Shown here: positions 40,798-55,411 of the stretch, one piece after another | Layout of the letters: each line of letters opens with the position of its first letter | Position numbering within the stretch: position 1 is the first letter of the stretch | Assembly: GCA_028284195.1 (NCBI GenBank) | Contig: JANQSE010000011.1 | Location: 18-64,017 of the forward strand | Length of the DNA: 64,000 nt | Direction of reading: 5' to 3' | Source of the DNA: Balneola sp. | Lineage (GTDB): Bacteria > Bacteroidota > Rhodothermia > Balneolales > Balneolaceae | Translations under genes and position numbers: made by a program | Notes under the pieces: generated by a model | The model's database searches: none | What the model saw: the letters and a program-made list of their open reading frames with translations, nothing else | Told to the model about the DNA's origin: nothing

Positions 40798-40907
40798 AAA
40801 AAAAAATAGCCCCACAGAAGCAGGGCATAAGGATACTCGTATGAGCAGAGCCGACAGAGTCTAAAAGACATCTTTGATGTGATAAGACTCTTTTCGAGAT
40901 GAATAAA
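40798..40907 (-). ncRNA. tracrRNA
   Basis: 18-nt anti-repeat at 40887-40904 (ATTCATCTCGAAAAGAGT on the minus strand), then nexus-like hairpin (GUCU-UUU-AGAC), terminator GCCCUGCUUCUGUGGGGC plus U9; TATACT -10-like element at 40910-40915 (minus). Confidence 0.88.
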
Positions 40908-40943
40908 TGAGTATAACCATCTCATTCTTAAAATCAAATTGTC

Positions 40944-43900
40944 ATGAAGAAAATACTGGGAGTAGATTTAGGAGTAGCATCCATAGGTTGGAGCTTACTT
41001 GAAAAAGGAGAAGAAACGGGAAGAATAATTAAAAGCGGTTCAAGGATTTTTCAATCTAATGAACAACGGGCAGACTCAGCACCGGGGAAATCAGCCAAAT
41101 CGGATTGGGGTACAAAACGATCTGTTCGTAGGCAAAGAGATAGAAGAACACGCAGAAAGCAAAAATTATACAATCTGTTATTTAAAAATGGATTGGCACC
41201 TAAAAAAGAACTTCGAGATGAGTGGATAAAACTAAATCCATATTTACTTCGTGCTAAGGGATTGGATGAAGAATTGAGCTTAATTGAATTGGGGAGAGCT
41301 TTTTATCATTTAAATCAACATAGAGGATATAAGAGTAATCGAAAAGACGGAGAAGAAAAAGATGGGCCTGTAAGCAAGGGTATATCAAAAGTTGAAAACT
41401 TAATGAAAGAATATGAAGCCAGAACCTTTGGCGAATATTGCTTTAAGATATTTGAAAACCATTTTGAAGAAAGTAAAAAACCAGTCGATGACGATTGGAG
41501 AATACGAGACAACTATACTCATCGTAGTATGTTTATAGATGAATTCGAAAAGATTTGGGGTGCCCAACAGAAGTTTAATCCAGCTAAACTCAATAATGAT
41601 TTAAAGAAAGAAGTTTTCGATACCATTTTTTTCCAAAGAAAAATGAAAAGTCAAGCTCATCTGATTGGGAAATGTCCTCTTGAAAAAAACAAGAAACGAA
41701 TTCCCAAAGCACATTTACTTTTTCAGGAATTCAGAATTCAAAAAAATCTAAATAACCTTTCTTTGGCCGATGAAAACGGTATTCCAATATCAATGAGTTT
41801 GGAAAACAAGAAAAGTCTCTTTGAATTAATGAACAAGAAAGGTAAAGTTACCTTCACGGCACTTAAAACTGTTTTGGTTAAAGAGGGATTGATTGCAAAT
41901 AAGAACAACGTAGTTTTTAATCTTGAAGCTGGTGGTCGAAAAGAAATTGAAGGGAACAGAACTAATCAAAAGTTGTCAGATGACAAGGCTTTTGGAGAAG
42001 ACTGGTATAAATTAGATAGAGAATTACAGGATTACATTGTGTATGTGCTCATTCACTTTGACGATCCGAACAAGGTTAAAGAGAAAGCTTTGAACGAATG
42101 GAACCGGAACGAAGACCAGGCAATCTATCTCAGTCATCTTGTTCTTGAGAAGAACTATGCGGGTTTTTCTGAGAAAGCCATTAAAAAGCTACTTCCGTTT
42201 TTAAAAAAGGGAATGGAAGAAAGTACAGCTATCGAAGCTGTAGGATATGACTTATTTGATCAAAAGCAGGGTACTCATGATAAGCTTCTTATGCCTCCCG
42301 ATATTAGAAACTCAGTAGTATATCATGCACTTATTGAATTGCGAAAGGTAGTCAACGGGATCATTAGAGAATATGGAATGCCAGACATTATTCGAGTAGA
42401 GCTTACTAGGGATATAAAAGCAGGGTACGAACGGCGGCAGAAGATGACTGAAAAAATGCGGGAGTTAGAGAAGAGAAATGACAAAGCTCGTAAAGAATTA
42501 AAGAAGGCTCCTTTTAACAGGGAAGAACCTACTTATAGTGATATTCTTTGGTACAATCTCTGGCAAGAATGTGATAAAATATGCCCGTATACTGAAAAAT
42601 CTATTCCTGCGTCAGCATTTAATTCAGGAGAATTTCAGGTAGAGCATATCATTCCTTTTAGCCGCTCATTGGATGATTCTTATGCCAATAAAACGTTGTG
42701 TGAAGCCGATTTTAACAGAAAAAAGGGAAATAAAACACCTTGGGAATGTGTACAAGGGCGTTTAATTAGTGAAGATGACCTGCTACAACGAAAACGCCGT
42801 TTGCCCTGGAATAAACAGAAAAAGTTTATCCAGAAAACTACTGAAGAAAACTCTTTTATAAACCGACAGTTAAGTGATACCCGATACATTAGCAGAGAGG
42901 CTAGTTCGTATTTAAAGCAACTTGCATGTGAACGTGTGGAAGTAGTGAAAGGGCAAACGACTTCCCTTCTTCGCCACGTTTGGGGATTGAATGGAGTGTT
43001 AAATAAAGAAGACGAAGAAATGAAAACTCGGGATGATCATCGCCACCACGCTGTTGATGCTATTGTTGTAGCATTGACCTCCCGATCCATTCTAAAGCGT
43101 TTAAGCGATGAAAACAAAAAATTAAGTTTTGATGAATGGAAAAGCATAGAAGAAACAGGCAAGGAGCAATATGAGGAATTGAAACGCAGAGCAGAAGGAA
43201 GGCTTTGGCTAAGCTATCCCTGGCTAAGCTTTAGACAGGATGTGGAGCGAAGCATTAATGATATTACTGTTTCTCATAGGGTAAACAGGAAAGTCTCTGG
43301 AGCTTTGCACGAAGAAACATTTTACGGACCTACGGATGAACCTGCTCCTAAAAATAAAGAAATGATGGTTGTTCGAAAACCTGTACACAAGCTTAAAATA
43401 ACTAAACGCACAAATGATTTAGAAGCTATACGAGATGAAGGAATCAGAAAAATTGTAGACGAAGAGATAAAGAAGAGAGTAGGTACTGGACTTAGTTTAG
43501 AAAATGCGGTAAAGAGCCTGGAAAACGATCCCCCATATATTATTTCACCCAAAGCAAAAGTACCCATTCGTAAAGTGCGCTTATTAATGGAGAAACAACC
43601 TGAAATAATGCATGCTTTCGAAGATGAAACAGGTAAGGTATTTAAGCATGCTTTGTATGGTAGTAACCATCATATAGCTATATATGAAACCTTAGATAAG
43701 AAGGGGCAGCGAAAACAAGTTGGTTTTGTGGTTCCAACTCTAGAAGCTGCCCGAAGAATAAAAGACGGAGAGCCTATCGTTGATAAAACCTATCTACCAA
43801 ATCATACTTTTCTTTTTTCACTTTCTATAAATGATATGATTATAAATCATGAAGACGAAGAAATTTATAGAGTACAGAAAATCACTTCAGATACTCAAAT

Positions 43901-44033
43901 GACTTTTCGTAAAAATGAAGTTTCCTTAAAGGGATCAGTAGATCCAGGTGTATTAAGAAAAATGCCAGGAACTCTAAAAGCAACAAAAATTAAAATTTCT
44001 CCTATTGGAGAAGTTTTCCCGGCCAATGATTAA
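40944..44033 (+). CDS. cas9: Type II-C CRISPR-associated endonuclease Cas9 (compact, 1029 aa)
   Basis: RuvC-I ILGVDLGVASIG; Arg-rich bridge helix; RuvC-II IRVELTRD; HNH QVEHIIPFSRSLDDSYANKTLC...N; RuvC-III RHHAVDA. Confidence 0.97.
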   Translation: MKKILGVDLGVASIGWSLLEKGEETGRIIKSGSRIFQSNEQRADSAPGKSAKSDWGTKRSVRRQRDRRTRRKQKLYNLLFKNGLAPKKELRDEWIKLNPYLLRAKGLDEELSLIELGRAFYHLNQHRGYKSNRKDGEEKDGPVSKGISKVENLMKEYEARTFGEYCFKIFENHFEESKKPVDDDWRIRDNYTHRSMFIDEFEKIWGAQQKFNPAKLNNDLKKEVFDTIFFQRKMKSQAHLIGKCPLEKNKKRIPKAHLLFQEFRIQKNLNNLSLADENGIPISMSLENKKSLFELMNKKGKVTFTALKTVLVKEGLIANKNNVVFNLEAGGRKEIEGNRTNQKLSDDKAFGEDWYKLDRELQDYIVYVLIHFDDPNKVKEKALNEWNRNEDQAIYLSHLVLEKNYAGFSEKAIKKLLPFLKKGMEESTAIEAVGYDLFDQKQGTHDKLLMPPDIRNSVVYHALIELRKVVNGIIREYGMPDIIRVELTRDIKAGYERRQKMTEKMRELEKRNDKARKELKKAPFNREEPTYSDILWYNLWQECDKICPYTEKSIPASAFNSGEFQVEHIIPFSRSLDDSYANKTLCEADFNRKKGNKTPWECVQGRLISEDDLLQRKRRLPWNKQKKFIQKTTEENSFINRQLSDTRYISREASSYLKQLACERVEVVKGQTTSLLRHVWGLNGVLNKEDEEMKTRDDHRHHAVDAIVVALTSRSILKRLSDENKKLSFDEWKSIEETGKEQYEELKRRAEGRLWLSYPWLSFRQDVERSINDITVSHRVNRKVSGALHEETFYGPTDEPAPKNKEMMVVRKPVHKLKITKRTNDLEAIRDEGIRKIVDEEIKKRVGTGLSLENAVKSLENDPPYIISPKAKVPIRKVRLLMEKQPEIMHAFEDETGKVFKHALYGSNHHIAIYETLDKKGQRKQVGFVVPTLEAARRIKDGEPIVDKTYLPNHTFLFSLSINDMIINHEDEEIYRVQKITSDTQMTFRKNEVSLKGSVDPGVLRKMPGTLKATKIKISPIGEVFPAND

Positions 44034-44922
44034 ACGCACGGTTGAAATATCGAGTGGTCCTGTTCATCTTACTATAAAGCATAAACAAATGCTGTTAAAG
44101 AAAGGGGAGGATGTACATTCCATTCCGGTAGAAGATCTAGGATTACTGGTGCTTTCTCATCCTGCCATCAGCTATACCCATCAGCTGCTATATGAGTTGT
44201 TAGAGCAAAATGTAGCTGTGCTTTTTTGTAACCGACAGCATATGCCCGAAGGACTATTGCTTCCTTTCGAGGACAACCAACTTCATCAAGCTCGTTTACA
44301 AATACAGGCAGAGGCAACTAAACCACTAAAAAAGAGACTATGGCAACAAGTTGTAAAGCAGAAAATTAAAGCTCAGTCAACAGTTCTTAAAGAAAAACAT
44401 GGGAATGATGATGGCTTAAAACTATTAATTCCAAAAGTTAAATCAGGTGATCCATCAAATGTGGAGGCAAGAGCTGCAAAACAATATTGGAAGAGTTTAT
44501 TTAAAGACAGCGAATTTCGTCGCAAATATGACTCTCCCGATCTGAATGCATTATTAAATTATGGATATGCGGTGATTCGGGCTGCGGTGGCGAGAAGTTT
44601 AACAGCGGCAGGACTTCATCCATCTATGGGGATTCATCATCATAACCAATACAACCCATATTGTTTAGCCGATGATATGATGGAGCCTTTACGGCCATTG
44701 GTGGATGCTGAGGTATATGATTTGTATGAACACCATAGCACGTTGAAAATTGAAGTAAACAAAAAAACAAAAAAGCCGTTACTCCAGCTTCTTACGAAAG
44801 AGGTTCGAATTAACGGGATGAAGTATCCTTTGTTAGAGAGCCTTCATTTGATGGCTTCATCTCTGGCTCAATGCTATGCCAGAGAAATAAAAAGAATTGA
44901 ATTTCCAACTCAGCCCGGTTAA
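44026..44922 (+). CDS. cas1: CRISPR-associated endonuclease Cas1 (type II)
   Basis: Probable start MIKRTVEIS overlapping the cas9 stop; VEARAAKQYW; LNALLNYGYAVIRA; LHPSMGIHH; LADDMMEPLRP. Confidence 0.96.
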   Translation: MIKRTVEISSGPVHLTIKHKQMLLKKGEDVHSIPVEDLGLLVLSHPAISYTHQLLYELLEQNVAVLFCNRQHMPEGLLLPFEDNQLHQARLQIQAEATKPLKKRLWQQVVKQKIKAQSTVLKEKHGNDDGLKLLIPKVKSGDPSNVEARAAKQYWKSLFKDSEFRRKYDSPDLNALLNYGYAVIRAAVARSLTAAGLHPSMGIHHHNQYNPYCLADDMMEPLRPLVDAEVYDLYEHHSTLKIEVNKKTKKPLLQLLTKEVRINGMKYPLLESLHLMASSLAQCYAREIKRIEFPTQPG

Positions 44923-44924
44923 GC

Positions 44925-45269
44925 ATGAGTAAACGAATGATTACATTTGGAGGGATGAAGACGATGTGGATGATAGTAATGTTTGATTTACCTGTTGATA
45001 CAAAAGCTGCGGTTAAAGAAGCTAATGATTTTAGAATACGGATAAAGAAAGATGGGTTTATGATGATGCAATTGTCTGTATATACCCGACACTGTCCTAG
45101 CCGAGAGAATGCAGATGTACATGAGCGTAGAGTAAAAAAAATCTTGCCCCCTGATGGAGAAGTACGCATTTTGCGCATTACTGATAAGCAGTTCGGAAAT
45201 ATGAAAATATTTCACGGAAAGCGAAGAAAACCCACCGAGAATGCCCCGAAGCAATTACAAATGTTTTAG
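44925..45269 (+). CDS. cas2: CRISPR-associated endoribonuclease Cas2
   Basis: MWMIVMFDLPV; GFMMMQLSVYTR; GEVRILRITDKQF; PKQLQMF. Confidence 0.95.
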   Translation: MSKRMITFGGMKTMWMIVMFDLPVDTKAAVKEANDFRIRIKKDGFMMMQLSVYTRHCPSRENADVHERRVKKILPPDGEVRILRITDKQFGNMKIFHGKRRKPTENAPKQLQMF

Positions 45270-45291
45270 TTTTTGTAGAGTTGGAACTGAA

Positions 45292-45316
45292 CAAGTTCTT
45301 GGGAGCCAAAAACTTG
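45292..45316. terminator. Hairpin in the cas2-array leader (probable terminator)
   Basis: Minus strand CAAGUUUUUGG-CUC-CCAAGAACUUG, 11-bp stem with one G-U pair. Confidence 0.5.
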
Positions 45317-45326
45317 AACAGAACCT

Positions 45327-46219
45327 AATCTAATTCATCTCGAAAAGAGTTCAAACCACAGCAATCCCGTGTTGTAGTTGTCTTCAATTCGGAATCTAAT
45401 TCATCTCGAAAAGAGTTCAAACCACAGCATGTTATCATTTTAGTCCCGTCATTTTAATAATCTAATTCATCTCGAAAAGAGTTCAAACCACAGCATGAGA
45501 TATTACCTGCTTTAATATTATTAGAATCTAATTCATCTCGAAAAGAGTTCAAACCACAGCGAAGTCTGACTGAGAGGTTGCGACTTCAGGAATCTAATTC
45601 ATCTCGAAAAGAGTTCAAACCACAGCCCCTTGTTAGATATTTCTATGATTGTCATAAATCTAATTCATCTCGAAAAGAGTTCAAACCACAGCTGATAAGA
45701 ACTCTGTTTCTATTACCATGACAATCTAATTCATCTCGAAAAGAGTTCAAACCACAGCATCGGCTTCGTTTATTTCATCAATGAGAAAATCTAATTCATC
45801 TCGAAAAGAGTTCAAACCACAGCGATTTCACACAGTTGATCAATGGAGGGTTGAATCTAATTCATCTCGAAAAGAGTTCAAACCACAGCCATCTCCAAAT
45901 AATCTTTAAGCTGCACTAAAATCTAATTCATCTCGAAAAGAGTTCAAACCACAGCAGATAGATTCTACTGGATTAAAGGGTTATAAATCTAATTCATCTC
46001 GAAAAGAGTTCAAACCACAGCAGAGACGGGTCATGCGATTACAGAGAATGAAATCTAATTCATCTCGAAAAGAGTTCAAACCACAGCGAAGTATTATGAT
46101 TAGTCCCATCGTCAATGAATCTAATTCATCTTGATAAGAGTTCAAGCCCCAACACTGTATTGTATTTACTAAATAATAGCGTTAACCTAATTCATCTTAA
46201 TAAGAGATCAAATCCCAAC
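45327..46219 (-). CRISPR. Type II-C CRISPR array: 14 repeats (12 identical, 2 variant) and 13 spacers
   Basis: 36-bp repeat AATCTAATTCATCTCGAAAAGAGTTCAAACCACAGC starting at 45327, 45393, 45459, 45525, 45591, 45657, 45723, 45788, 45854, 45920, 45986, 46052; variants at 46118 and 46184; spacers 30 bp (one 29 bp); crRNA strand deduced from tracr complementarity. Confidence 0.98.
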
Positions 46220-46274
46220 CCCAACCTCCTGTCCAAGTGAATTGGTTAAAATTTAAATAAACATCCATTCTCCT

Positions 46275-47648
46275 ATGGCTCATAAAATTCTCAGGAAAGA
46301 TGATTATCTGCCCAAATCAAGTCCGGTTGGGCCATTCATATTCCTCATGCTTCTGTCCGCAATTCTCATGCTTGTTGACATTGAGAGGATGGTATTTTGG
46401 GGAGTCCTGGCTGGAGTATCACCTTTTTTCGGTCTCTGGTTTCATGCGAGGTGCACTAAAAAGGCATACGCTCGCTGGGCCCAAGATATATCGAACCTTA
46501 TAAGTAGCAAGCAGGCCATTAACTACAATGATCTGTTCTATTGGACCGATTTAACCGTATGGCACAAAATAGATTTTAACGTCGCCAGCGATAAGTTTCT
46601 AAAAGAAGTTTTCGCCCGGACAGAAAAGAACTGGGAACTCGATGGCCTCTACACTGCTTTCCTCAAGCGCTATTCTATAGAGGAGCTGACTAAGATCATA
46701 GCTTCAAACCAGAAACTCAGGTATGAAGATCAGCAAACCATGCTTAAATATGTTGAACGGATCAAGGACGGGGTCCCCACCTCTTTCTGGGACCTAACTC
46801 TAGAAGAAATCAACGGAGTGGACTATTATGAAGCTGAATTAGAGCGAGCCTTGCGCGAAGATGACATTCCTGCCCTAGAAAAAGCACTTCAAAAAATAGA
46901 TGAATTCAGTTTCAACGACTATCCATACGAAGAAGCATCGACGCAAGCCTTGCTCACTATCGTAGAAAAAGCACTGACTCAAGAGGGTGCCTTTAATGGA
47001 GCTTATCATCTCATTGGACGCGATAGTACCTTAAGCGATTTGGCCCACGCAGTAGCAAAAAACCCCAACCTCACCTTACAAGAAAAAGCAGGATTCCTGA
47101 TGCCTAGGATCGAAGATGAGGGCTATGACTTGAATCTTATTGATGAAAACCAGCCTGAGTATGCTTTCATTGAGATGGCACGAAAACAAGCCCGCAGGGA
47201 AGTAAAAGCAAAAGAAGCTTTAAAACAAAAAGAAAGCGAACTCATAGCTGTAATGGATAATGTTCGAGCGAAGCGCGAAGATCGAATCCGTGCGACAAAA
47301 GCCTTCGCAACGATACATTCAAAGTGGGCTATCAGCGTGTGTTCTGGTACTCAAGCCGCATGGCATTGTCCCGAATGCGCCATCAAGGGAACCTATTCGA
47401 TGAAGCGTGACATGCGAGACGTTTACGAAAAGCAGCTTGAAGCAGGAGCTATGCTGCGAGGAGAAGAAATCTGCGGAACCTGCAACATATCTTTTACCAC
47501 CGCGCAAATATACCGAGGTGAGCTAGATGCTGTATTTATCGATATAAGCTGCAAAAACTGCCACTATGATTGGACCGGGCCTGTTGAATCTTTTATCGAC
47601 AGTAATTGCAAGCAATGTAACGCTCCTTTTATTTCCAGTCATCTATAA
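46275..47648 (+). CDS. Hypothetical membrane protein: 2 TM, coiled coil and four CxxC motifs
   Basis: 457-aa ORF; two N-terminal hydrophobic segments; CPEC, CGTC, CKNC, CKQC at the C-terminus. Confidence 0.8.
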   Translation: MAHKILRKDDYLPKSSPVGPFIFLMLLSAILMLVDIERMVFWGVLAGVSPFFGLWFHARCTKKAYARWAQDISNLISSKQAINYNDLFYWTDLTVWHKIDFNVASDKFLKEVFARTEKNWELDGLYTAFLKRYSIEELTKIIASNQKLRYEDQQTMLKYVERIKDGVPTSFWDLTLEEINGVDYYEAELERALREDDIPALEKALQKIDEFSFNDYPYEEASTQALLTIVEKALTQEGAFNGAYHLIGRDSTLSDLAHAVAKNPNLTLQEKAGFLMPRIEDEGYDLNLIDENQPEYAFIEMARKQARREVKAKEALKQKESELIAVMDNVRAKREDRIRATKAFATIHSKWAISVCSGTQAAWHCPECAIKGTYSMKRDMRDVYEKQLEAGAMLRGEEICGTCNISFTTAQIYRGELDAVFIDISCKNCHYDWTGPVESFIDSNCKQCNAPFISSHL

Positions 47649-47734: not shown

Positions 47735-48232
47735 ATGTCCGATTCATTTATAGTCATTGTTATCATCAGTATCGTTGCGATTGTCTTTATACTCAGCTCT
47801 ATTAAGAATAAAAAGATCAATGAACTCCCTTTCGTCATGCGACTGCATAAGATTAAAGAAGAGATGGAAAGCAAGTGTTCTGAGTGTAAGCAAGAAATGG
47901 ATCAATTAAAAAATTCAGATCCGAATAAAGTAGAAGTCATTCGTTATAAATTAGACGCATACAACGCAGAGAAAGCAAAGTATGTTAGAATGGTCGATGC
48001 TGCTAAAAGAATTGCTAAAAAGATCGGCTCAGAATCTGATACCCAAGCATACAATGCAAAACTTGAAGGAGTCCTAAAAGCCAGTGGACGAGACACACTC
48101 GCAAGCCTTTCTCAGTTACAAGCCATATTTGCCGTGCGTGGAGAATCGCCTTTCAACCAAACGGTGGAGCAGTTAATTCAAGCTTACAAAAGTAATAAAA
48201 CGATTACGCCTGAATTATTTCTGGATACTTAG
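47735..48232 (+). CDS. Hypothetical signal-anchored coiled-coil protein
   Basis: 165-aa ORF; N-terminal FIVIVIISIVAIVFIL; Lys/Glu-rich helical body. Confidence 0.75.
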   Translation: MSDSFIVIVIISIVAIVFILSSIKNKKINELPFVMRLHKIKEEMESKCSECKQEMDQLKNSDPNKVEVIRYKLDAYNAEKAKYVRMVDAAKRIAKKIGSESDTQAYNAKLEGVLKASGRDTLASLSQLQAIFAVRGESPFNQTVEQLIQAYKSNKTITPELFLDT

Positions 48233-48501: not shown

Positions 48502-49980
48502 ATGAAGTACATCCAAGTATCCGGTAACCAACGATCTCCTGCTTATTGTTCAGACAATGCCTGCCCTTGTCCTGGTCTCGGAGCGGAAATCCCTCACGGG
48601 CAGGGATATATGTATATATCCAAGGATGTAGCTGACTTTCGCCAAGATGCTCTCTCTGAGAGTGAAGCCGAGCGTAAAATTAAAAGCCTGGCGACATCGG
48701 GGAATTTCACCATGTTCGACGCGAGTGTATTTTCTCCCACTTTGATGTGTGAGCTAGGGGCAAAGAAGAGACAGCTCGATTTGGAAATGGCTGCGAGTGA
48801 TGCCAAGCACTGGTGGAATACGGGTGAAGTGCCTTGCCGTCCAACATCCATTAAGGGTGAAGAGGATAGCTCTATCGGTAGTGATGAAGACGCCAGCAAA
48901 CTCTTGAGCGATGCAGATGATGTTGTAGCAGACCTCAATGCGCTTCTAGGGAAAGAGGGCGATCTGGATACGGATGCTTTGCAAGCCATCAACGATAGGA
49001 TGGATACGCTTGTAAAAGATGCCGGGGCATATGTAGCTAACGATTCGCTTTCGGCAGCATTTAAAGAGATCTTAGAACAATTTCGCGAGACAGAAAGTGG
49101 GATCAATGAATTATTCGCATCTTCAGATTGGGAAGATAACCATTATAACTTAGTGGATCTTTACACTGAAAAATTGGGGCTCCTTGCTGAGTATGCTGAA
49201 GAGGTCTTGGAGGGTGAAGAATTGGAGATGGCACTAACCCGTTACCATAACATCCTAACGGAATTTAAAAATAAATTAGAAGTGCTGGAGAAGGATATTG
49301 AATCCGATTTAGCAGACGCGAAACGTGATGAGTCAAAGAATGTTTCATCAGGAGATCCTAAACCTAAATCAAATAAAACGGTTGTTTGGGGGGGTGTCCT
49401 TTTATTAATCATAGCTGTCTGGTTCCTCTACAATAGAGCTGAAAATAATGCTAAAGAGTATGAAGCTCTTTTAAAAGAAATGAATGAGACTGAGCGTAGC
49501 ATTGAGAGCGACACGGAACAGAATGCTCAGACCATAGAGTTTCTTGGGTATTGGAATTGGTATATTGAGAATCCTCAAACTCAAGGGGTCTCGGTTGGTT
49601 TTCAGAATAACTCGACGAAGCCAGTGAAGGCTTTTAAAGGAACGATTGCGAGTTTAGATGACTTTGGAGATCCTACAGATAATCGGATCGATTTTCTATT
49701 CGACTCAAAGTCTATTTATCGAGGCGTGGACGAGTCTGGTGCCTTTTATAGTACTTTGCACTATGTGATTCCTCCCGGTGAAAAATTGTTTATAACCCAA
49801 ATAGCCTCAGGTGCTGGGGTAGTTGGCTACGTTTCTTCAGAATTTATAGACGTATTTTATGACTACTATATAAAGGTGGGTGATGGCTTTGAAGTGACGA
49901 GTTATAATTATTTAAATAATATTACTGCTAGCCCTAAAGATATAGAATTAAGGATAGAAAAAGTTTTGTACGATGAGTAG
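48502..49980 (+). CDS. Hypothetical bitopic membrane protein with Cys-rich N-terminal domain
   Basis: 492-aa ORF; CSDNACPC...LMCE...HWWNTGEVPC; acidic helical linker; TM VVWGGVLLLIIAVWFLY; coiled coil; beta-rich C-terminal domain. Confidence 0.8.
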   Translation: MKYIQVSGNQRSPAYCSDNACPCPGLGAEIPHGQGYMYISKDVADFRQDALSESEAERKIKSLATSGNFTMFDASVFSPTLMCELGAKKRQLDLEMAASDAKHWWNTGEVPCRPTSIKGEEDSSIGSDEDASKLLSDADDVVADLNALLGKEGDLDTDALQAINDRMDTLVKDAGAYVANDSLSAAFKEILEQFRETESGINELFASSDWEDNHYNLVDLYTEKLGLLAEYAEEVLEGEELEMALTRYHNILTEFKNKLEVLEKDIESDLADAKRDESKNVSSGDPKPKSNKTVVWGGVLLLIIAVWFLYNRAENNAKEYEALLKEMNETERSIESDTEQNAQTIEFLGYWNWYIENPQTQGVSVGFQNNSTKPVKAFKGTIASLDDFGDPTDNRIDFLFDSKSIYRGVDESGAFYSTLHYVIPPGEKLFITQIASGAGVVGYVSSEFIDVFYDYYIKVGDGFEVTSYNYLNNITASPKDIELRIEKVLYDE

Positions 49981-50042
49981 CCGAGGCTCTCTAGGAGTTA
50001 AAGTGCTGATACCGGTCAGGCAAATGCCGGGCTTACCCATCC

Positions 50043-50256
50043 CAGTTGAAACAATGTTCTCAACCGGTCTGAAATAAGATCTTCGCCGAGGGGGGGAGAA
50101 AAAATCATAGGCTAGGGTTTCATAGTCGGGAAACTATATCACATCGGCAGACTCAACAAAGAAGCTTAAAGCCGAATAAAGTTGCTGGGTGGTTTGGAGC
50201 GAAGCCGTGATCACCAGCACGGACTGGCCTGCCTCGACGTGCCGCTGATAATACCA
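50043..50256 (-). pseudogene. mfd: Decayed N-terminal fragment of transcription-repair coupling factor
   Basis: RHVEAGQSVLVITASLQTTQQLYSALSFFV...I*FPDYETLAYDFFSPP, frameshift in the G7 run, then EDLISDRLRTLFQL; matches the Mfd motif ETLPYDxFSPHQDIISxRLxTLYQL. Confidence 0.8.
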
Positions 50257-50260
50257 GGAG

Positions 50261-50428
50261 AAATTACCTATTTTTCGATTTTCGATAAAGCCATTAAAGT
50301 CAATCTTGCCACTGGCATTGGTTGCAACTCTGATTTCGCCCGGTGTGCAGGCTGAAAGGGCTCGTGTTGCGGTAGCGGCCAATTTTTATTCTGTGATGAA
50401 AGAGTTGTCGGATTCTTTTGAAATCTAA
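50261..50428 (+). pseudogene. modA: 5' fragment of molybdate ABC substrate-binding protein, truncated by a CRISPR repeat
   Basis: Signal peptide KPLKSILPLALVATLISPGVQA, then ERARVAVAANFYSVMKELSDSFE (ModA VAVAANF motif); no ATG; stop TAA supplied by the repeat at 50426-50428. Confidence 0.75.
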
Positions 50429-50457
50429 TTCATCTTGATAAGAGATCAAATCCCAAC
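50422..50457 (-). CRISPR. Isolated CRISPR repeat (variant type)
   Basis: AATCTAATTCATCTTGATAAGAGATCAAATCCCAAC; 34/36 to the repeat at 46184, 33/36 to 46118, 30/36 to consensus. Confidence 0.93.
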
Positions 50458-50623
50458 GGAACGAGAATCCTTACTGGTAACAGCTTTGTGGTTACATCAA
50501 AATCTTTCATACAACTTAGCTGAGAATTGGAGTGCTTTACTTCGAAAAATTGGTATGGGTTGTTTTAAAAAATCTTGAATAGATTTGTTAGCAAGGATAT
50601 CTCTGATAAACACACAAAACATT

Positions 50624-51523
50624 ATGAAACACATCCACAAAATATTCTTCATCCTCTTACTTACAACAACTACCATGGTACAAGCTCAGAACAAAAAACT
50701 AAAGATATACATCTCTGCCGATATGGAGGGGGTTGTCGGGGCAGTTACCGGCGACCAACTCGGTCCCGGAGGCTTTGAATACGAACGCTTTCGCAAGTTT
50801 ATGACTGCAGAAGTAAATGCCTGCATAGCAGCAGCCCGCGAAGCCGGTGCAGACGAGATTCTTGTCAGCGATTCGCACGGCAACGGGCAGAATATCCTCA
50901 TCGAAAAATTGCCTGATGATGTGATGATCGTAAGATCGTGGCCACGCGTACTGGGCATGATGGAAGGCATTGACGATTCTTTTGACGGAGCCATCTTCCT
51001 GGGCTACCACGCCAGTACCAACAGCAAAGAAGGTGTAAGGGCGCATACCATGTCCAGCGCCAACATCACCTCGCTTAAAATCAACGATATGGTAATGCCC
51101 GAAGCAGGCATCAATGCACTGATTGCCGGACATTTTAATGTGCCCGTTATTCTGGTTACAGGAGACGATATTGCCGTGAAAGAAACACAAGACCTGATCG
51201 GGGATGTAGAAGGCGCTGTTGTGAAATGGGCGAACAGCTTCCACTCAGCAAAAACCCTTACCCCCAATGCCGCTTATGAGGTAATCGGCAAAAAAACCAA
51301 AGCGGCCATAAAGAGAATCAAAGAGTTTAAACCTTACCAATTAGAAGGCCCCTTAACCCTCGACCTCAGCCTGAAAAACTACCGCCCCGTAGAGCTTTTA
51401 CAGTATTATCCCGGAGCCGAGCGAATCGATTCGCATACCATCCGCTTCGTTGGTAAAGACATTGTTGAAATCTCCGTATTCCTTCGGTTTGTAACCGGGT
51501 ACAACATCACGCTGAAACCCTAA
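50624..51523 (+). CDS. dppA: M55 family D-aminopeptidase (DppA-like), secreted
   Basis: IYISADMEG; VSDSHGNG; LGYHA; AHTMSS; PEAGINA; VTGDD; signal peptide; probable start MKHIHK. Confidence 0.92.
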   Translation: MKHIHKIFFILLLTTTTMVQAQNKKLKIYISADMEGVVGAVTGDQLGPGGFEYERFRKFMTAEVNACIAAAREAGADEILVSDSHGNGQNILIEKLPDDVMIVRSWPRVLGMMEGIDDSFDGAIFLGYHASTNSKEGVRAHTMSSANITSLKINDMVMPEAGINALIAGHFNVPVILVTGDDIAVKETQDLIGDVEGAVVKWANSFHSAKTLTPNAAYEVIGKKTKAAIKRIKEFKPYQLEGPLTLDLSLKNYRPVELLQYYPGAERIDSHTIRFVGKDIVEISVFLRFVTGYNITLKP

Positions 51524-51528
51524 CCGGA

Positions 51529-52584
51529 ATGAAAAAAACCGCCATAGCCATTACCGGAGGTGAACTGCACACCAACTATGCAAAAACAACCCACGGCCTT
51601 ATCAGAGGTTCCGATCGTTTTGAGTTATTGGCCGTCATCGACCATAAGCATGCAGGAGCGGATGTGGGGGAGTTTCTGGACGGCAAAAACAGAAATATTC
51701 CAATAGTTGCTTCCGTAGATGAAGCAGTAAAACAATTTGCGCACATCGACTGCCTTATTGTAGGCGTGGCAACCAAAGGGGGTATTTTATCTGCTGATTT
51801 ATTAAATGCCATAAAAAAAGCCATTGCCTGTAAACTTAATATCGTTAACGGGTTGCACCATTTATTGTGCGAACAGCCGGATATTGTATCACTGGCACAG
51901 GAGTACGATGTAGAATTGATCGATATTCGAAAACCCAAACCAATCAAAGACCTGCATTTCTGGACGAGTGAAATATTTAATGTGGATGTTCCCGTAGTGG
52001 CGGTTTTGGGTATGGATTGTGCTTTGGGCAAGCGCACTGCCACCCGGCTGATGCTGGAAGCGTGCCGGGCAAAAGGCATAAAAGCAGAGATGATCTATAC
52101 CGGCCAGACCGGCTGGATGCAGGGCAGCAAATATGGCTTTATCTTCGACTCCACACTCAACGACTTCGTCTCGGGTGAACTGGAACATGCAATTGTTTCT
52201 TGTTGGAAAGAAGAAAAACCGGACGTGATATTTTTGGAAGGGCAGTCTGGCCTCCGAAACCCCAGCGGGCCTTGCGGCTTGGAAATGCTCATTTCCGGAA
52301 ATGCCAAAAAAGTGATTCTGGTATGTGCGCCCGGGAGACAATACTTTGACCATGAGCCTGCGTGGGGGGAGATCCCGTCCATCGAATCGGAAATGGAAAT
52401 CATTGCAACATTTGGCAGCGAGGTAGTCGGTCTGGCATTAAATACCGAAGGACTTTCTTCGGAAGAAGCAGAAGCCGTTCAGTCTGAGTTAGAAGCCTCA
52501 TTGAATATTCCGGTTGTTAACCCCATTAAGGAAGGAGTACAAAGATTAGTAACTGCGCTAAAAATGACCGTCCATGAAAATTAA
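51529..52584 (+). CDS. DUF1611 family protein (DgcN-like D-amino-acid N-acetyltransferase)
   Basis: YAKTTHGLIR; IVNGLH; GMDCALGKRT; TGQTG; FLEGQSGL. Confidence 0.85.
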   Translation: MKKTAIAITGGELHTNYAKTTHGLIRGSDRFELLAVIDHKHAGADVGEFLDGKNRNIPIVASVDEAVKQFAHIDCLIVGVATKGGILSADLLNAIKKAIACKLNIVNGLHHLLCEQPDIVSLAQEYDVELIDIRKPKPIKDLHFWTSEIFNVDVPVVAVLGMDCALGKRTATRLMLEACRAKGIKAEMIYTGQTGWMQGSKYGFIFDSTLNDFVSGELEHAIVSCWKEEKPDVIFLEGQSGLRNPSGPCGLEMLISGNAKKVILVCAPGRQYFDHEPAWGEIPSIESEMEIIATFGSEVVGLALNTEGLSSEEAEAVQSELEASLNIPVVNPIKEGVQRLVTALKMTVHEN

Positions 52585-53638
52585 AGCAATCGAGGCCTTT
52601 TCAAAAAATCTGGCGCTTACCAAACCGTACAGTATTGCTTACAAAACAGTTTCCGATGTTGAAAGTGCTTTTCTGTTCATCACGCTCGAAAATGGAATTA
52701 CCGGCATCGGAGCCGCCAACCCTGCTAAGGAAGTCGTCAACGAAACTCCTGCGGAAACCCTTGCAAATTGTCAGTCTGACTATTTCCAATCCTTTGTTGG
52801 CAAAGACATCCGGCATTTCCGAAAAATGATTCAGGATATTCATGTTGCTTTTCCCGACAAACCGGGTACACAGGCCGTTTGGGATATTGCCCTGCATGAT
52901 GCTTTTGCAAAATACCTTGGGATTCCTGTGGTAGCGATTTACGGGCAGCACATCAAATCGCTGCCCACATCGGTAACCATTGGTATTATGGGCGTGGAAG
53001 ACACACTAAAGGAAGCTGCTGAGTACAAAAAATCGGGCTTCAATGTGCTCAAAGTAAAGACCGGAGAATCTGTTGAGCTGGATATTGAACGAATCCTGAA
53101 ACTCCGCGAACAGCATAGCGGCATGGTTATCCGTGTAGATGCCAACCAGGGCTATGACCGGGAAGCATTGCTGCAATTTGTGAGTGCAGTAGAAAAAGCG
53201 GGTGTAGAATTGATAGAACAGCCCATTCCTGTGGGGAAAGAACAAGAACTAGCTGATGTTGACGAAAATATCAGGAAAATACTGGTGGCCGATGAAAGCC
53301 TGAAAAACAGCGCCAGTGCTATACAATATGCCGGTGTGCCTCAACTCTTCGGTATTTATAACATCAAACTGATGAAATGTGGTGGAATTTTCGGGGCGTT
53401 CGAAATAGCTGCTATTGCAAAAGCAGCCAATATTGACCTGTTTTGGGGCTGCAACGATGAAAGCATCGTGAGCATTACGGCGGCCTTGCATGCCGCGTTC
53501 GCTTGTCCCCATACCAAATACCTCGACCTCGATGGCAGCTTTGACCTGGCAGAAGATCTGGTAAGCGGGGGATTTACGCTAAAAGACGGAATACTAAGTA
53601 TCAACGAAAAACCGGGGTTCGGTTTTGAACTCAACTAA
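52574..53638 (+). CDS. Enolase-superfamily dipeptide epimerase (L-Ala-D/L-Glu epimerase / DgcA-like)
   Basis: DIALHD; TSVTIGI; KVK catalytic motif; RVDANQG; IEQP; ADES; NIKLMKCGG; LDLDG. Confidence 0.92.
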   Translation: MKIKAIEAFSKNLALTKPYSIAYKTVSDVESAFLFITLENGITGIGAANPAKEVVNETPAETLANCQSDYFQSFVGKDIRHFRKMIQDIHVAFPDKPGTQAVWDIALHDAFAKYLGIPVVAIYGQHIKSLPTSVTIGIMGVEDTLKEAAEYKKSGFNVLKVKTGESVELDIERILKLREQHSGMVIRVDANQGYDREALLQFVSAVEKAGVELIEQPIPVGKEQELADVDENIRKILVADESLKNSASAIQYAGVPQLFGIYNIKLMKCGGIFGAFEIAAIAKAANIDLFWGCNDESIVSITAALHAAFACPHTKYLDLDGSFDLAEDLVSGGFTLKDGILSINEKPGFGFELN

Positions 53639-53639
53639 A

Positions 53640-53831
53640 ATGAAGACTATGAAAAAAACATTGTTACTCGCTTCTTTTTTACTTCTCCTTACGGGGGTAG
53701 CAACTGCCCAAACAAGTATCGAGGCATTGCTGTCGGCTCCTTTTCCTTCCGGGCTTACCGGCTCGCCCGATAGCAAAGCGGATATCAGTATTGAGCAATT
53801 TTTAATCGATGAGTTGCAATCAGTAGATTAA
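53640..53831 (+). pseudogene. Truncated S9-family peptidase-like remnant
   Basis: Signal peptide then SIEALLSAPFPSGLTGSPD, typical of the secreted S9 peptidase N-terminus; ends after about 63 aa. Confidence 0.55.
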
Positions 53832-53950
53832 TGCTCTTTCATTTTTTCATCAAAAGCATTTTTTTCTAAGCCCATCAGCTCCGGGTCTTTCAATTTTTAT
53901 TTTAACTGATACGTATTTTAAAAATTATCTTTCTTAACGACTTTTGTTGC

Positions 53951-55411
53951 CTATTTCCCTTCAATATGCTTCACCAGATTTTCTAACTGCGTATCTCTAT
54001 TGCCTAATACCTGCTGCACATCTTTTGGAATGACAATATCAGGCTCTGTGCCGTTGGTGTCTAGTGTTTTTCCATTGCGCTGAAATGATATCATCGAAGA
54101 TAGCCTTATATCGAATTTTGAGTGTTTTAGCTCAAAATATTGACTTCTTCCACTGGAACCATCGGTACCCATACCTGCAATTTTTACGTTACCCATACCT
54201 TTCAGTGCCGAAGTAAATACGCTGGCAGCGCTAAAAGAGCGTTCGTTTACCAAAACATATACAGGTTTATCGTAGTAATAATGATCTACACCCAAATCAT
54301 GGCTTAGTACCATATAAAAGGCATCAGAAAAACGTTCAGGGTTATAGGCCCATTCGGTTTTAAAATCTTTACTAAATGCTTTTATTGCTTCAATGTCATC
54401 TCTGGTAAAACGTCTTGAACGTGTGTTATACAAGTAACGTGCCTGCATGGTACGCATATCCTCACTAATCTTCTGGTCGCTTCTGATTCTTGTAACATTT
54501 GCAACCCAGGGTTTGGCATCAGGGCTTAAAAAATAAGGGGCTAACATCATTAAAAAATCACGAGTACCACCTCCATTATATCTCAGGTCAATAATCAATG
54601 CATCTGTATTTTTATAATCGTGCATTTTTGCGGGAACATACCGATGTAGATTTCCGCCCTTCCGGTCTCTTTTGCTCACCATGGCTGGCAAACTGATATA
54701 TCCAATGTTATTGCCAACTATTTTAAACAAACTTGGCAAATCTTTTATATTCGGACTGTAGGCCAGATCTCTCCAGCGTTTGGGGTTTTCTGTTAACGGT
54801 AGTGTTAGTGATTTGTCTTTACTACCATTGGTAAAGGTAAATTTATACGTATCTGACTTGCCAAAAACGGCTGTCAAAAAATAATCGTAATTGCGCTCCC
54901 TGGTGGCCTGATGTATTTTAGCGTACTTTGGTGCATGCTTATGCCTCCACGAAATCTTTTCGATAAATTCCTGAATAGGCATGTCATTAATAGATTTTAG
55001 GTAAGGATAATTTTTCTGAAACAGTTGATATGTATCCTTTACTAATTCCTTTTTCAGCGCTACTATGTTCCCGTCTACGGGCGCCATCATAAAAGGCATT
55101 CCTAATGAATCATTTTTGATATTTTCAGGGTACACTCCGGAATGCCGGTCTCCAATGTTTCCTAAAATTTTCACCAAATCATAGTACAAATCTTTAAGGA
55201 CAACAGTCTCGTCCAAACCGGCTATTACCTTATCTATAGCCGCCTCATGATGAGCCCCTTTTGAATACAAATAAGACGATTCTCTGTTTAAAACATCCCG
55301 GAATTTTTCAATATCCTCAATGGCTTGTTGCCTGGTAATGGTCTGTGCATAACCTGTTACAGAAATAAGGAATGTTATAACAGTAAAAAGACTAAAAAGT
55401 AATTTCTTCAT
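53951..55411 (-). CDS. S41 family peptidase, secreted
   Basis: GNNIGYISL; ALIIDLRYNGGG; VYVLVNERSFSAASVF; GMGTDG; NGTEPDIVI. Confidence 0.9.
   Translation of the reverse strand: MKKLLFSLFTVITFLISVTGYAQTITRQQAIEDIEKFRDVLNRESSYLYSKGAHHEAAIDKVIAGLDETVVLKDLYYDLVKILGNIGDRHSGVYPENIKNDSLGMPFMMAPVDGNIVALKKELVKDTYQLFQKNYPYLKSINDMPIQEFIEKISWRHKHAPKYAKIHQATRERNYDYFLTAVFGKSDTYKFTFTNGSKDKSLTLPLTENPKRWRDLAYSPNIKDLPSLFKIVGNNIGYISLPAMVSKRDRKGGNLHRYVPAKMHDYKNTDALIIDLRYNGGGTRDFLMMLAPYFLSPDAKPWVANVTRIRSDQKISEDMRTMQARYLYNTRSRRFTRDDIEAIKAFSKDFKTEWAYNPERFSDAFYMVLSHDLGVDHYYYDKPVYVLVNERSFSAASVFTSALKGMGNVKIAGMGTDGSSGRSQYFELKHSKFDIRLSSMISFQRNGKTLDTNGTEPDIVIPKDVQQVLGNRDTQLENLVKHIEGK

Follow-up and report, generated by a model that had tools for sequence, protein, structure and literature searches.

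How does a single CRISPR repeat come to stand outside its array, with a truncated gene ending at its first base? This question is raised by 64,000 nucleotides of Balneola sp. DNA (contig JANQSE010000011.1 of assembly GCA_028284195.1), the whole of which we call the window. In it, a 36-bp repeat at positions 50422 to 50457 lies 4.2 kb past a type II-C CRISPR array, on the trailer side, and directly follows a relic of modA, which encodes a molybdate-binding protein. An initial annotation, made from the sequence alone, had described this joint as the product of strand transfer by Cas1-Cas2, either at the end of an oversize prespacer or through off-target integration in a donor genome. We find that the whole feature is most likely an evolutionary scar of foreign DNA that entered a CRISPR array and not a working element. 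The explanation that we favor, with a probability of about 0.4, is that an ordinary modA-derived spacer was later extended by recombination with donor DNA.

A solitary B-type repeat beside an A-type array

The solitary repeat reads AATCTAATTCATCTTGATAAGAGATCAAATCCCAAC on the plus strand, in the same orientation as the array at 45327 to 46219; the sense of a CRISPR RNA (crRNA) is that of the minus strand. A scan of the whole 64 kb for 36-mers with up to 12 mismatches found no other repeat-like sequence outside the array; thus, no second repeat follows the joint, as the initial annotation had stated. There is no further copy of the repeat in the 13.5 kb downstream, no repeat at the in-phase positions 66 nt to either side, and no leader upstream, and the repeat does not form part of a regular repeat-spacer series. 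A further degenerate repeat considered at 50501 was not significant and was rejected.

A search with Cas1 yielded 15 related loci (L001 to L015), all from Balneola or Balneolaceae genomes, whose repeats are of two kinds. The A kind, found at 12 of these loci, has the repeat ..CTCGAAAAGAGTTCAAACCACAGC or near variants of it; this is also the repeat of the window's array, which is identical to that of L003. The B kind, with the repeat ..CTTGATAAGAGATCAAATCCCAAC, is found at three loci (L001, L002, and L014). The solitary repeat agrees in all 36 positions with each consensus repeat of these three B-type arrays, and it is also identical to repeats in several other marine sequencing runs; to the local A repeat it has six mismatches. 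The idea that it is a worn or stray copy from the local A array was accordingly rejected in favor of the exact B-type match.

The two kinds of locus differ in their effector genes and resemble each other in their adaptation genes. The window's Cas9 is 78% identical to that of L003; the figures are 65 to 78% for A-type Cas9s and 47 to 50% for the B-type Cas9s of L001, L002, and L014. At the border between cas9 and cas1, DNA identity to A and B loci changes from about 50% to about 80%, and across all loci the DNA of cas1, cas2, and the leader shows about 80% identity. Each kind encodes a separate trans-activating CRISPR RNA (tracrRNA) on the minus strand upstream of cas9, and the changes in its anti-repeat compensate those of its repeat (CTTGATAAGAG in the B-type tracrRNAs). 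Duplex energies are −34.8 kcal/mol for the A repeat with the A-type tracrRNA (tracrA) and −37.4 kcal/mol for the B repeat with the B-type tracrRNA (tracrB), versus −21.3 kcal/mol for B with tracrA and −25.4 kcal/mol for A with tracrB; the solitary repeat has the B-type values with both tracrRNAs. Two interchangeable effector modules, A and B, each composed of cas9, the tracrRNA, and the tracrRNA-pairing part of the repeat, are combined with a single adaptation module, made up of cas1, cas2, the leader, and the 14 nt on the leader side of the repeat. To judge from the sequence, the crRNAs are read from the minus strand.

B-type units are also found in the resident array itself. At its trailer end are two decayed B-type repeats on the plus strand, R13 (46118 to 46153; three mismatches to B and five to A) and R14 (46184 to 46219; two mismatches to B and eight to A). 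Both pair with tracrB (−33.6 and −34.7 kcal/mol, respectively) and not with the resident tracrA (−18.4 and −19.5 kcal/mol). None of 12 other A-type arrays has B-like trailer units, and where the trailer end of such an array can be seen, degeneration is confined to the last repeat, which is still A-like. Since the solitary repeat is exactly B type and R13 and R14 are B-like, the lineage once held a B-type array, and an A module later displaced the B module. The solitary repeat is a fossil of this former B-type array at the locus, the third beside R13 and R14. The B-type loci of L002 and L014 adjoin the same 2-oxoglutarate dehydrogenase (OGDH) gene as the window's locus.

Could the joint be an artefact, made when unrelated contigs were merged through the 36-bp repeat of another B-type array in the metagenome? 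Only one public run, a coral metagenome (Logan record SRR20820731), holds this DNA, and we examined its Logan contigs assembled at k = 31, which makes the support contig-level. A 9,074-nt contig of depth 54 extends from upstream of cas9 to 50450 and thus crosses the joint, with the array collapsed in it. The next contig, of depth 43, runs unbranched from 50422 to 54094. The 31-mer that bridges the two at the repeat has a depth of 55, against 54 for the left contig, and the flanking contigs have depths of 43 to 62 on both sides. The left contig enters the exact-B repeat, which has one exit in the k = 31 graph and no second high-depth path out of it. This exit leads into the native right flank (50458 to 51523, plus strand), consisting of a 166-nt intergenic stretch and a gene assigned by Pfam to the M55 D-aminopeptidases (50624 to 51523). 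B-like repeats in other contexts do occur in the same sample, at depths of 4 to 63, as an artefact of this kind would need. Nevertheless, the joint is confirmed at the contig level with no sign of a chimera, and we regard such a merger as extremely improbable.

The other repeat contexts of the coral run may come from another strain or an alternative allele. Among them are a one-letter variant of the repeat with an internal depth of 63 and junctions at about 20, a 339-nt contig of depth 4 in which sequence that is neither array nor leader ends in the sequence of the solitary repeat, and another repeat with over 255 nt of unique DNA after it. The run contains no B-type cas9 at least 85% identical to that of L014. 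In other runs with the B repeat, it forms ordinary leader-adjacent arrays without the M55 flank. One 32-kb contig (run X20) has a B-type leader, a single repeat, and then unique sequence; it has the appearance of a naive array with one repeat, in what seems to be the genome of an isolate.

The complete conservation of the solitary repeat (0 of 36 changes) beside decayed DNA could be taken to mean that selection has kept it for a function, as a small CRISPR-associated RNA (scaRNA), a crRNA-like regulator, a promoter, or a terminator. Standalone repeats with regulatory roles are known (PMC10120712), and a scaRNA has been described in type II-C Neisseria (PMC13431127). However, the solitary repeat pairs weakly with the resident tracrRNA, at −21.3 kcal/mol against −34.8 kcal/mol for the resident repeat, and its would-be guide, the reverse complement of 50458 to 50487, has no seed match of at least 10 nt in the window, the cas9 promoter included. 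No site at the repeat resembles a promoter, and the sole nearby terminator-like stem (50366 to 50379) stands about 40 nt upstream, inside the modA relic; the number of such sites, five, compares with a mean of 4.3 in shuffled sequence. Rfam gives no match for the repeat, and no orphan repeat occurs in the 15 related loci. A functional repeat is thus very improbable.

In the resident locus, cas9 and the tracrRNA are of the A type, matching the A-type repeats of the array. The tracrRNA gene (40798 to 40918, minus strand) lies upstream of cas9 and consists of an inverted partial repeat copy followed by a hairpin and a run of nine T residues; the anti-repeat is at 40876 to 40904 and the hairpin and T-run are near 40798 to 40826, a design that is the same in L003. 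Rfam has no match for this gene either. On the plus strand follow cas9 of type II-C (40944 to 44033; 1,029 aa; Pfam RuvC_III, HNH_4, and Cas9_a), cas1 (44005 or 44026 to 44922; Pfam Cas_Cas1), cas2 (44925 to 45269; Pfam CRISPR_Cas2), and a 57-nt leader (45270 to 45326) between cas2 and the first repeat. The leader aligns across A- and B-type loci, is present in the same form in other runs, and ends in ..CTTGAACAGAACCT directly before the first repeat. Twelve identical 36-nt A-type repeats with spacers of 29 to 30 nt (45327 to 46087, plus strand) precede R13 and R14. Because the conserved leader is on the cas2 side and the degenerate repeats are at the far end, the right end of each spacer meets the left edge of an older repeat; this joint is made when Cas1-Cas2 attacks the border between leader and repeat.

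Beyond R14, a stretch at 46250 to 46264 on the plus strand, in phase after a 30-nt spacer and overlapping the start region of the next gene (orf457), agrees with the start of the repeat at 10 of 15 positions. It may be a true, heavily decayed terminal repeat: the background frequency of such a match is 0.0022 per position, but gapped local alignment finds it not significant, and the assignment is tentative. If real, it would mark the end of the array before the three genes that follow and would place the solitary repeat outside the array proper. Immediately after R14, CCCAAC repeats the last 6 nt of the repeat to give the tandem CCCAACCCCAAC at 46214 to 46225, which could reflect slippage, mis-set integration, or chance (about 1 in 4,096 for a fixed position). 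Segmental duplications within an array are suggested by L007, where many spacers between 3358 and 6745 are internally duplicated and several 30-nt spacers occur two to three times each.

The modA' and mfd' relics and their joint with the repeat

The modA relic (modA'; 50270 to 50421, plus strand) encodes a signal peptide and the first 24 mature residues of the molybdate-binding protein and is cut after ..FE. The initial annotation had named it from its signal peptide and the VAVAANF..FE run that leads up to the repeat, and targeted alignments bear this out. The mature part aligns without gaps to the N-termini of solved ModA structures, best to that of Pseudomonas aeruginosa (7t4z; two-sequence BLASTP E = 3e-5, 9 of 23 identities, VAVAANF identical), and modA' has the signal peptide followed by the β1-α1 N-terminal motif of the ModA family. 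None of 1,000 shuffles reached the score of modA' against 7t4z or 1atg; the corresponding values are p = 0.001 for 9wgd and p = 0.04 for the Escherichia coli protein. When modA' is joined to the true Pseudomonas continuation, the product matches the Pfam family SBP_bac_11 (E = 7e-9), and the relic occupies positions 2 to 21 of the profile.

Untargeted searches with the modA' peptide found no match in Pfam, NCBIfam, or the PDB and none in a word search of 5.8 billion proteins; exhaustive phmmer against 1.84 billion proteins gave one spurious repetitive match only, and tblastn against plasmids gave none. As a control, a genuine 23-residue ModA N-terminus on its own scores E = 0.088 against Pfam, so negative untargeted searches are expected for so short a piece. 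No donor genome for modA' emerged from the protein indexes, phmmer, plasmids, or any of the fetched loci.

The reading frame of modA', ..KLPIFRFSIKPLKSILPLALVATLISPGVQAERARVAVAANFYSVMKELSDSFE, reaches a GAA codon at 50420 to 50422, and the open frame before the repeat reads ..IKPLKSILPLALVATLISPGVQAERARVAVAANFYSVMKELSDSFE. The third base of the last modA' codon is therefore the first base of the repeat, and the frame is stopped by a TAA at 50426 to 50428 inside the repeat, which supplies the stop as had been proposed. At the other end, modA' has no ATG; a Shine-Dalgarno sequence, AGGAGA, at 50256 to 50261 is followed by ATT at 50270, and ATA stands at 50285. The alignments run to the last residues of modA' (..FE versus ..FE(K) in ModA; 7t4z continues past the cut with KDTGH), so the cut is no more than 3 nt away from where the repeat starts. 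This agrees with the truncation at the first base of the repeat that the initial annotation had reported. Moreover, as the ModA alignment is gapless up to the last residue, no spacer remnant longer than 3 nt remains between modA' and the repeat. Two or three nucleotides at the joint (AA or AAA) could belong to either side, and a hypothetical donor reading TTT GAA AAR would have AA(A) in common with the first bases of the repeat.

We also considered whether modA resumes after the repeat and rejected this, as neither frame continues the ModA domain; the similarities there are weak and non-collinear, and Pfam gives no match. Within the window, the last 28 nt of modA' (50394 to 50421) agree at 20 of 28 positions with part of the M55 gene (50958 to 50985), 564 nt downstream. 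Both encode ..M.E..DSF(E/D), and the likeness is probably due to chance.

Back to back with modA' lies a second relic, mfd' (49990 to 50268, minus strand), the N-terminal part of a transcription-repair coupling factor (NCBIfam NF007966, E = 1.4e-7, profile positions 41 to 101; tblastn places the match from 50217 down to 49990). It is 61 to 62% identical to the Mfd N-termini of two Pseudomonadales metagenome-assembled genomes (MAGs), which are its sole relatives in 5.8 billion proteins, and the motif FPDYETLAYDFFSP is common to all. One of these relatives (P0002, on L023) is encoded on a contig with the order nqrA-gap-GGDEF-mfd, and the other on a contig of 530 nt with that gene alone. In its approximately 95 codons, mfd' has one in-frame stop and two frameshifts, one of them at a C7/G7 run near 50093 to 50099, and it is not an intact frame. 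It ends about 10 nt from the stop codon of the neighboring orf492.

Together, modA' and mfd' make up a 441-bp patch (49981 to 50421) whose GC content is 0.48, versus a window mean of 0.414 ± 0.027. By its sequence, the patch is foreign, Pseudomonadales-like chromosomal DNA. The stop and frameshifts of mfd' and the lost start of modA' indicate that it is old and decayed and not a fresh capture.

The repeat edge at which the joint stands faces the leader, and it is there that every normal spacer has its old-repeat end; modA' thus resembles a spacer in having one end flush with the leader-side edge of an older repeat. In length it does not: a spacer would measure 29 to 31 nt with a second repeat as its bound, and the coding-derived run here comes to at least 150 nt for modA' and to 441 nt with mfd'. 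The 473 spacers in 16 related arrays are all 29 to 31 nt long, and no array contains an oversize unit.

Routes to the joint

The border of the repeat is very probably the site of a past Cas1-Cas2 reaction; otherwise, its agreement with the end of modA' is a coincidence of about 6%. The attribution to Cas1-Cas2 strand transfer in the initial annotation is a legitimate candidate as far as the joint itself goes, given the leader-facing edge and the exactness within 3 nt, but alternative routes give the same joint. The two forms that had been proposed for it fare less well. Integration in a donor genome does not fit a Balneola repeat at a Balneola locus with a Pseudomonadales-like scrap, and an oversize prespacer is not required, since spacer-protospacer recombination starting from a normal 30-bp spacer gives the same joint. 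The PAM (protospacer-adjacent motif) had been expected in the donor just beyond the junction. With crRNAs read from the minus strand, the modA end would be PAM-distal, and the PAM would instead lie about 30 nt inside the scrap, at approximately 50384 to 50391.

In a direct form of the Cas1-Cas2 route, a half-site or oversize integration, the integrase would have joined the 3' end of a long untrimmed prespacer (at least 150 to 440 bp) to the leader-side edge of the repeat, and host repair would have completed the insertion. The geometry is that of a leader-side strand-transfer product, in which the fragment's 3' end on the plus strand meets the repeat at its 5' end, and the exactness of the joint, within 3 nt, speaks for this route as well. 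Half-site products and disintegration are reported in vitro for type II-A Cas1-Cas2 (PMC8390005, PMC6895254). However, Cas1-Cas2 measures spacer length, the spacers of the 16 arrays are uniform, and we know of no in vivo spacer of hundreds of base pairs. In addition, the solitary repeat is not beside a leader, which the reaction normally needs, the left end of the 4.2-kb block has no clean repeat duplication, and the patch is possibly composite. On balance we consider the joining of a long fragment unlikely. The broader claim that the joint is a natural footprint of Cas1-Cas2 acting in vivo as a general, casposase-like integrase, fixed in a wild genome, is a shade less likely again. If the integrase did join long DNA, this would bear on the relation of CRISPR adaptation to its transposon-like ancestry.

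The favored route, extension of an ordinary spacer by recombination, would begin with a B-type array at this locus, in which Cas1-Cas2 integrated a modA spacer of about 30 bp and thereby fixed the joint at the first base of the repeat. The B module would have been replaced by the A module, after which all later spacers were added with A-type repeats and the B-type units were left unusable; these would persist as the two decayed units at the tail of the array and the intact one 4.2 kb beyond. Donor DNA that entered after the modA spacer had been acquired would have recombined with it by homology between spacer and protospacer, with the far end of the DNA joined illegitimately. Such an event would have lengthened the spacer to the left with uninterrupted donor sequence and eliminated the neighboring repeat or repeats. 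The patch would then have decayed, and the three genes now found between patch and array would have come between them. We infer both the order of these events and the recombination step. The route uses known processes alone, and it explains the exactness of the joint for free. Spacer-protospacer recombination that moves CRISPR-adjacent DNA was reportedly demonstrated in staphylococci by Varble et al. in 2019. A one-sided homologous anchor raises the integration of foreign DNA by orders of magnitude, a process known as homology-facilitated illegitimate recombination.

Several points weigh against this history. No donor genome was found in the searches described above, and continuity of the donor across the presumed spacer edge (approximately 50391/50392) is assumed. 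The predicted PAM, the reverse complement of 50384 to 50391 (GAATAAAA), cannot be judged without a PAM for the B-type Cas9; no protospacer for the spacers of the 16 arrays was found in the window or the fetched loci, and hence no PAM could be derived. An anchor of 30 bp is near the lower limit for RecA-type recombination, and none of the 473 spacers from the 16 related arrays resembles 50392 to 50421. The solitary repeat has 0 of 36 changes, whereas R13 and R14 have three and two and the patch has decayed; a perfect repeat is mildly unexpected if it is equally old and neutral (roughly p = 0.07 to 0.14, a rough estimate). Between the modA' and mfd' relics, which touch or overlap, there is no divergent promoter region, and the patch may be composite. 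The history also leaves the three genes between patch and array unexplained. Finally, chance alone would give an exact joint in about 6% of insertions placed at random in a 66-bp repeat-spacer period.

On another view, the position of the joint is a coincidence, in which the patch, or a larger element since eroded, joined the old B-type array illegitimately, by microhomology, or through later deletions, with no role for Cas proteins. At most 2 to 3 nt of possible microhomology (AA or AAA) are present at the joint. About 6% of random breaks would fall in the 3- to 4-nt zone of the 66-nt period, and the observation was selected post hoc from the 64 kb. The remaining borders seem arbitrary: the end of mfd' near the orf492 stop is one example, and the 4.2-kb block probably does not directly abut a repeat on its left. 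The region to the right of the array is, moreover, a synteny break-point among relatives. Against this stands the roughly 1-in-16 chance that a coincidence needs. Two-ended illegitimate integration of nonhomologous foreign DNA is also very rare compared with anchored events. We judge a coincidence possible but doubtful. One scar, on a single metagenomic contig, is too little to choose among these readings.

Three intact genes on the plus strand without known homologs (ORFans) separate the array from the patch: orf457 (46275 to 47648; 457 aa), a gene for a 165-aa protein (47735 to 48232), and orf492 (48502 to 49980; 492 aa). Searches of Pfam, PHROG, PADLOC, and NCBIfam returned sub-threshold noise and no significant match for any of them. 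The only contig on record that holds them comes from the same sample. In composition and codon use they are like the rest of the window, and they have membrane-like segments. About 120 aa of orf492 (24% of its length) are common to multidomain proteins with TPR or FGE-sulfatase domains. Within orf457, an inverted 25-nt stretch (46819 to 46843), 84 to 86% complementary to the leader-side part of the repeat, had the highest repeat-like score outside the arrays; its score of 34 is only marginally above random (31), and it was rejected as a repeat.

A mobile element could have carried the solitary repeat, or an RNA anti-CRISPR that mimics one, alongside captured host DNA, and have been integrated by recombination between the repeat and the array, with the ORFans as its remains. 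The block is bounded by two B-like repeats, R14 and the solitary repeat, and contains three genes without homologs. Solitary repeat units are reported from viruses and plasmids (PMC10651486, PMC11656645). However, Pfam and PHROG scans of the locus found no integrase, transposase, or phage gene, neither an A- nor a B-type repeat occurs in any of 2.9 million viral contigs, and the ORFans are native in composition. No spacer from the 16 arrays targets the block, and a B-type mimic would be aimed at a system that the host no longer uses. Such an element is improbable.

On the right, the M55 gene is followed by a DUF1611 gene and an epimerase-like gene. The order M55-DUF1611-orf354 is kept in one metagenome contig (L025), and the DNA upstream of M55 differs there and in a second contig (L026). 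Across 80 metagenome M55 loci, the upstream region is variable and without repeats, and none of the 15 related CRISPR loci has the right flank of the window. At 50581 to 50588, upstream of M55, TAGATTTG fits the Bacteroidota-type −7 motif TAnnTTTG; the M55 promoter is probably downstream of the solitary repeat and independent of it.

Comparison with known systems

The solitary repeat is similar to the decayed trailer and orphan repeats that remain from arrays, in that it is a true repeat in the orientation of the array, lies on the trailer side of a cas9-cas1-cas2 array, and is mismatched to the resident effector. Unlike such remnants, it is not degenerate but identical to the repeat of the sister effector variant, and, at a distance of 4.2 kb from the array, its neighbors are genes and a foreign scrap, not spacers.

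Spacer-protospacer recombination would leave what is seen here, donor sequence that continues without a break into a spacer, which in turn abuts a repeat at its far edge. The work attributed to Varble et al. is said to have concerned laboratory phages, with CRISPR DNA moved into phage genomes. The case described here differs in that bacterial, Pseudomonadales-like DNA would have become fixed in the chromosome by insertion into a type II-C array, as deduced from one scar. Gene flow via spacers has so far been shown mainly in laboratory phage-Staphylococcus systems. If extension of a modA spacer by recombination is the true history, the window holds a natural, fixed case in which a spacer served as a landing pad for DNA that it was meant to exclude.

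Non-canonical integration was reportedly described by Nivala et al. in 2018. Half-site, off-target, and ectopic integration by Cas1-Cas2 (PMC8390005, PMC6895254, PMC6698737) offer a further comparison. As in these reactions, the joint in the window coincides exactly with the border of the repeat where the integrase makes its first attack. The known products differ in that their spacers have a set length and that a pseudo-repeat is duplicated in off-target events; here there is a fragment of at least 150 bp, one repeat, and no adjacent leader.

Solitary repeat units, RNA anti-CRISPRs, and regulators of the crRNA-like or scaRNA kind (PMC10651486, PMC10120712, PMC13431127) likewise involve a single standalone repeat near a CRISPR-cas locus. 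They differ from the window, which has none of the hallmarks of a mobile element, whose pseudo-guide has no target match, and whose solitary repeat is mismatched to the resident tracrRNA.

The shuffling of adaptation and effector modules is a general principle of CRISPR-Cas evolution. The Balneola loci follow it, as cas1, cas2, and the leader are held in common while cas9, the tracrRNA, and the tracrRNA-pairing part of the repeat are exchanged en bloc. An array that preserves the fossils of such an effector swap provides a clean natural case for the study of repeat-tracrRNA-Cas9 coevolution and cross-compatibility. What sets the window apart from other instances of module shuffling is that it keeps these fossils in the same array, with B units standing behind twelve A units.

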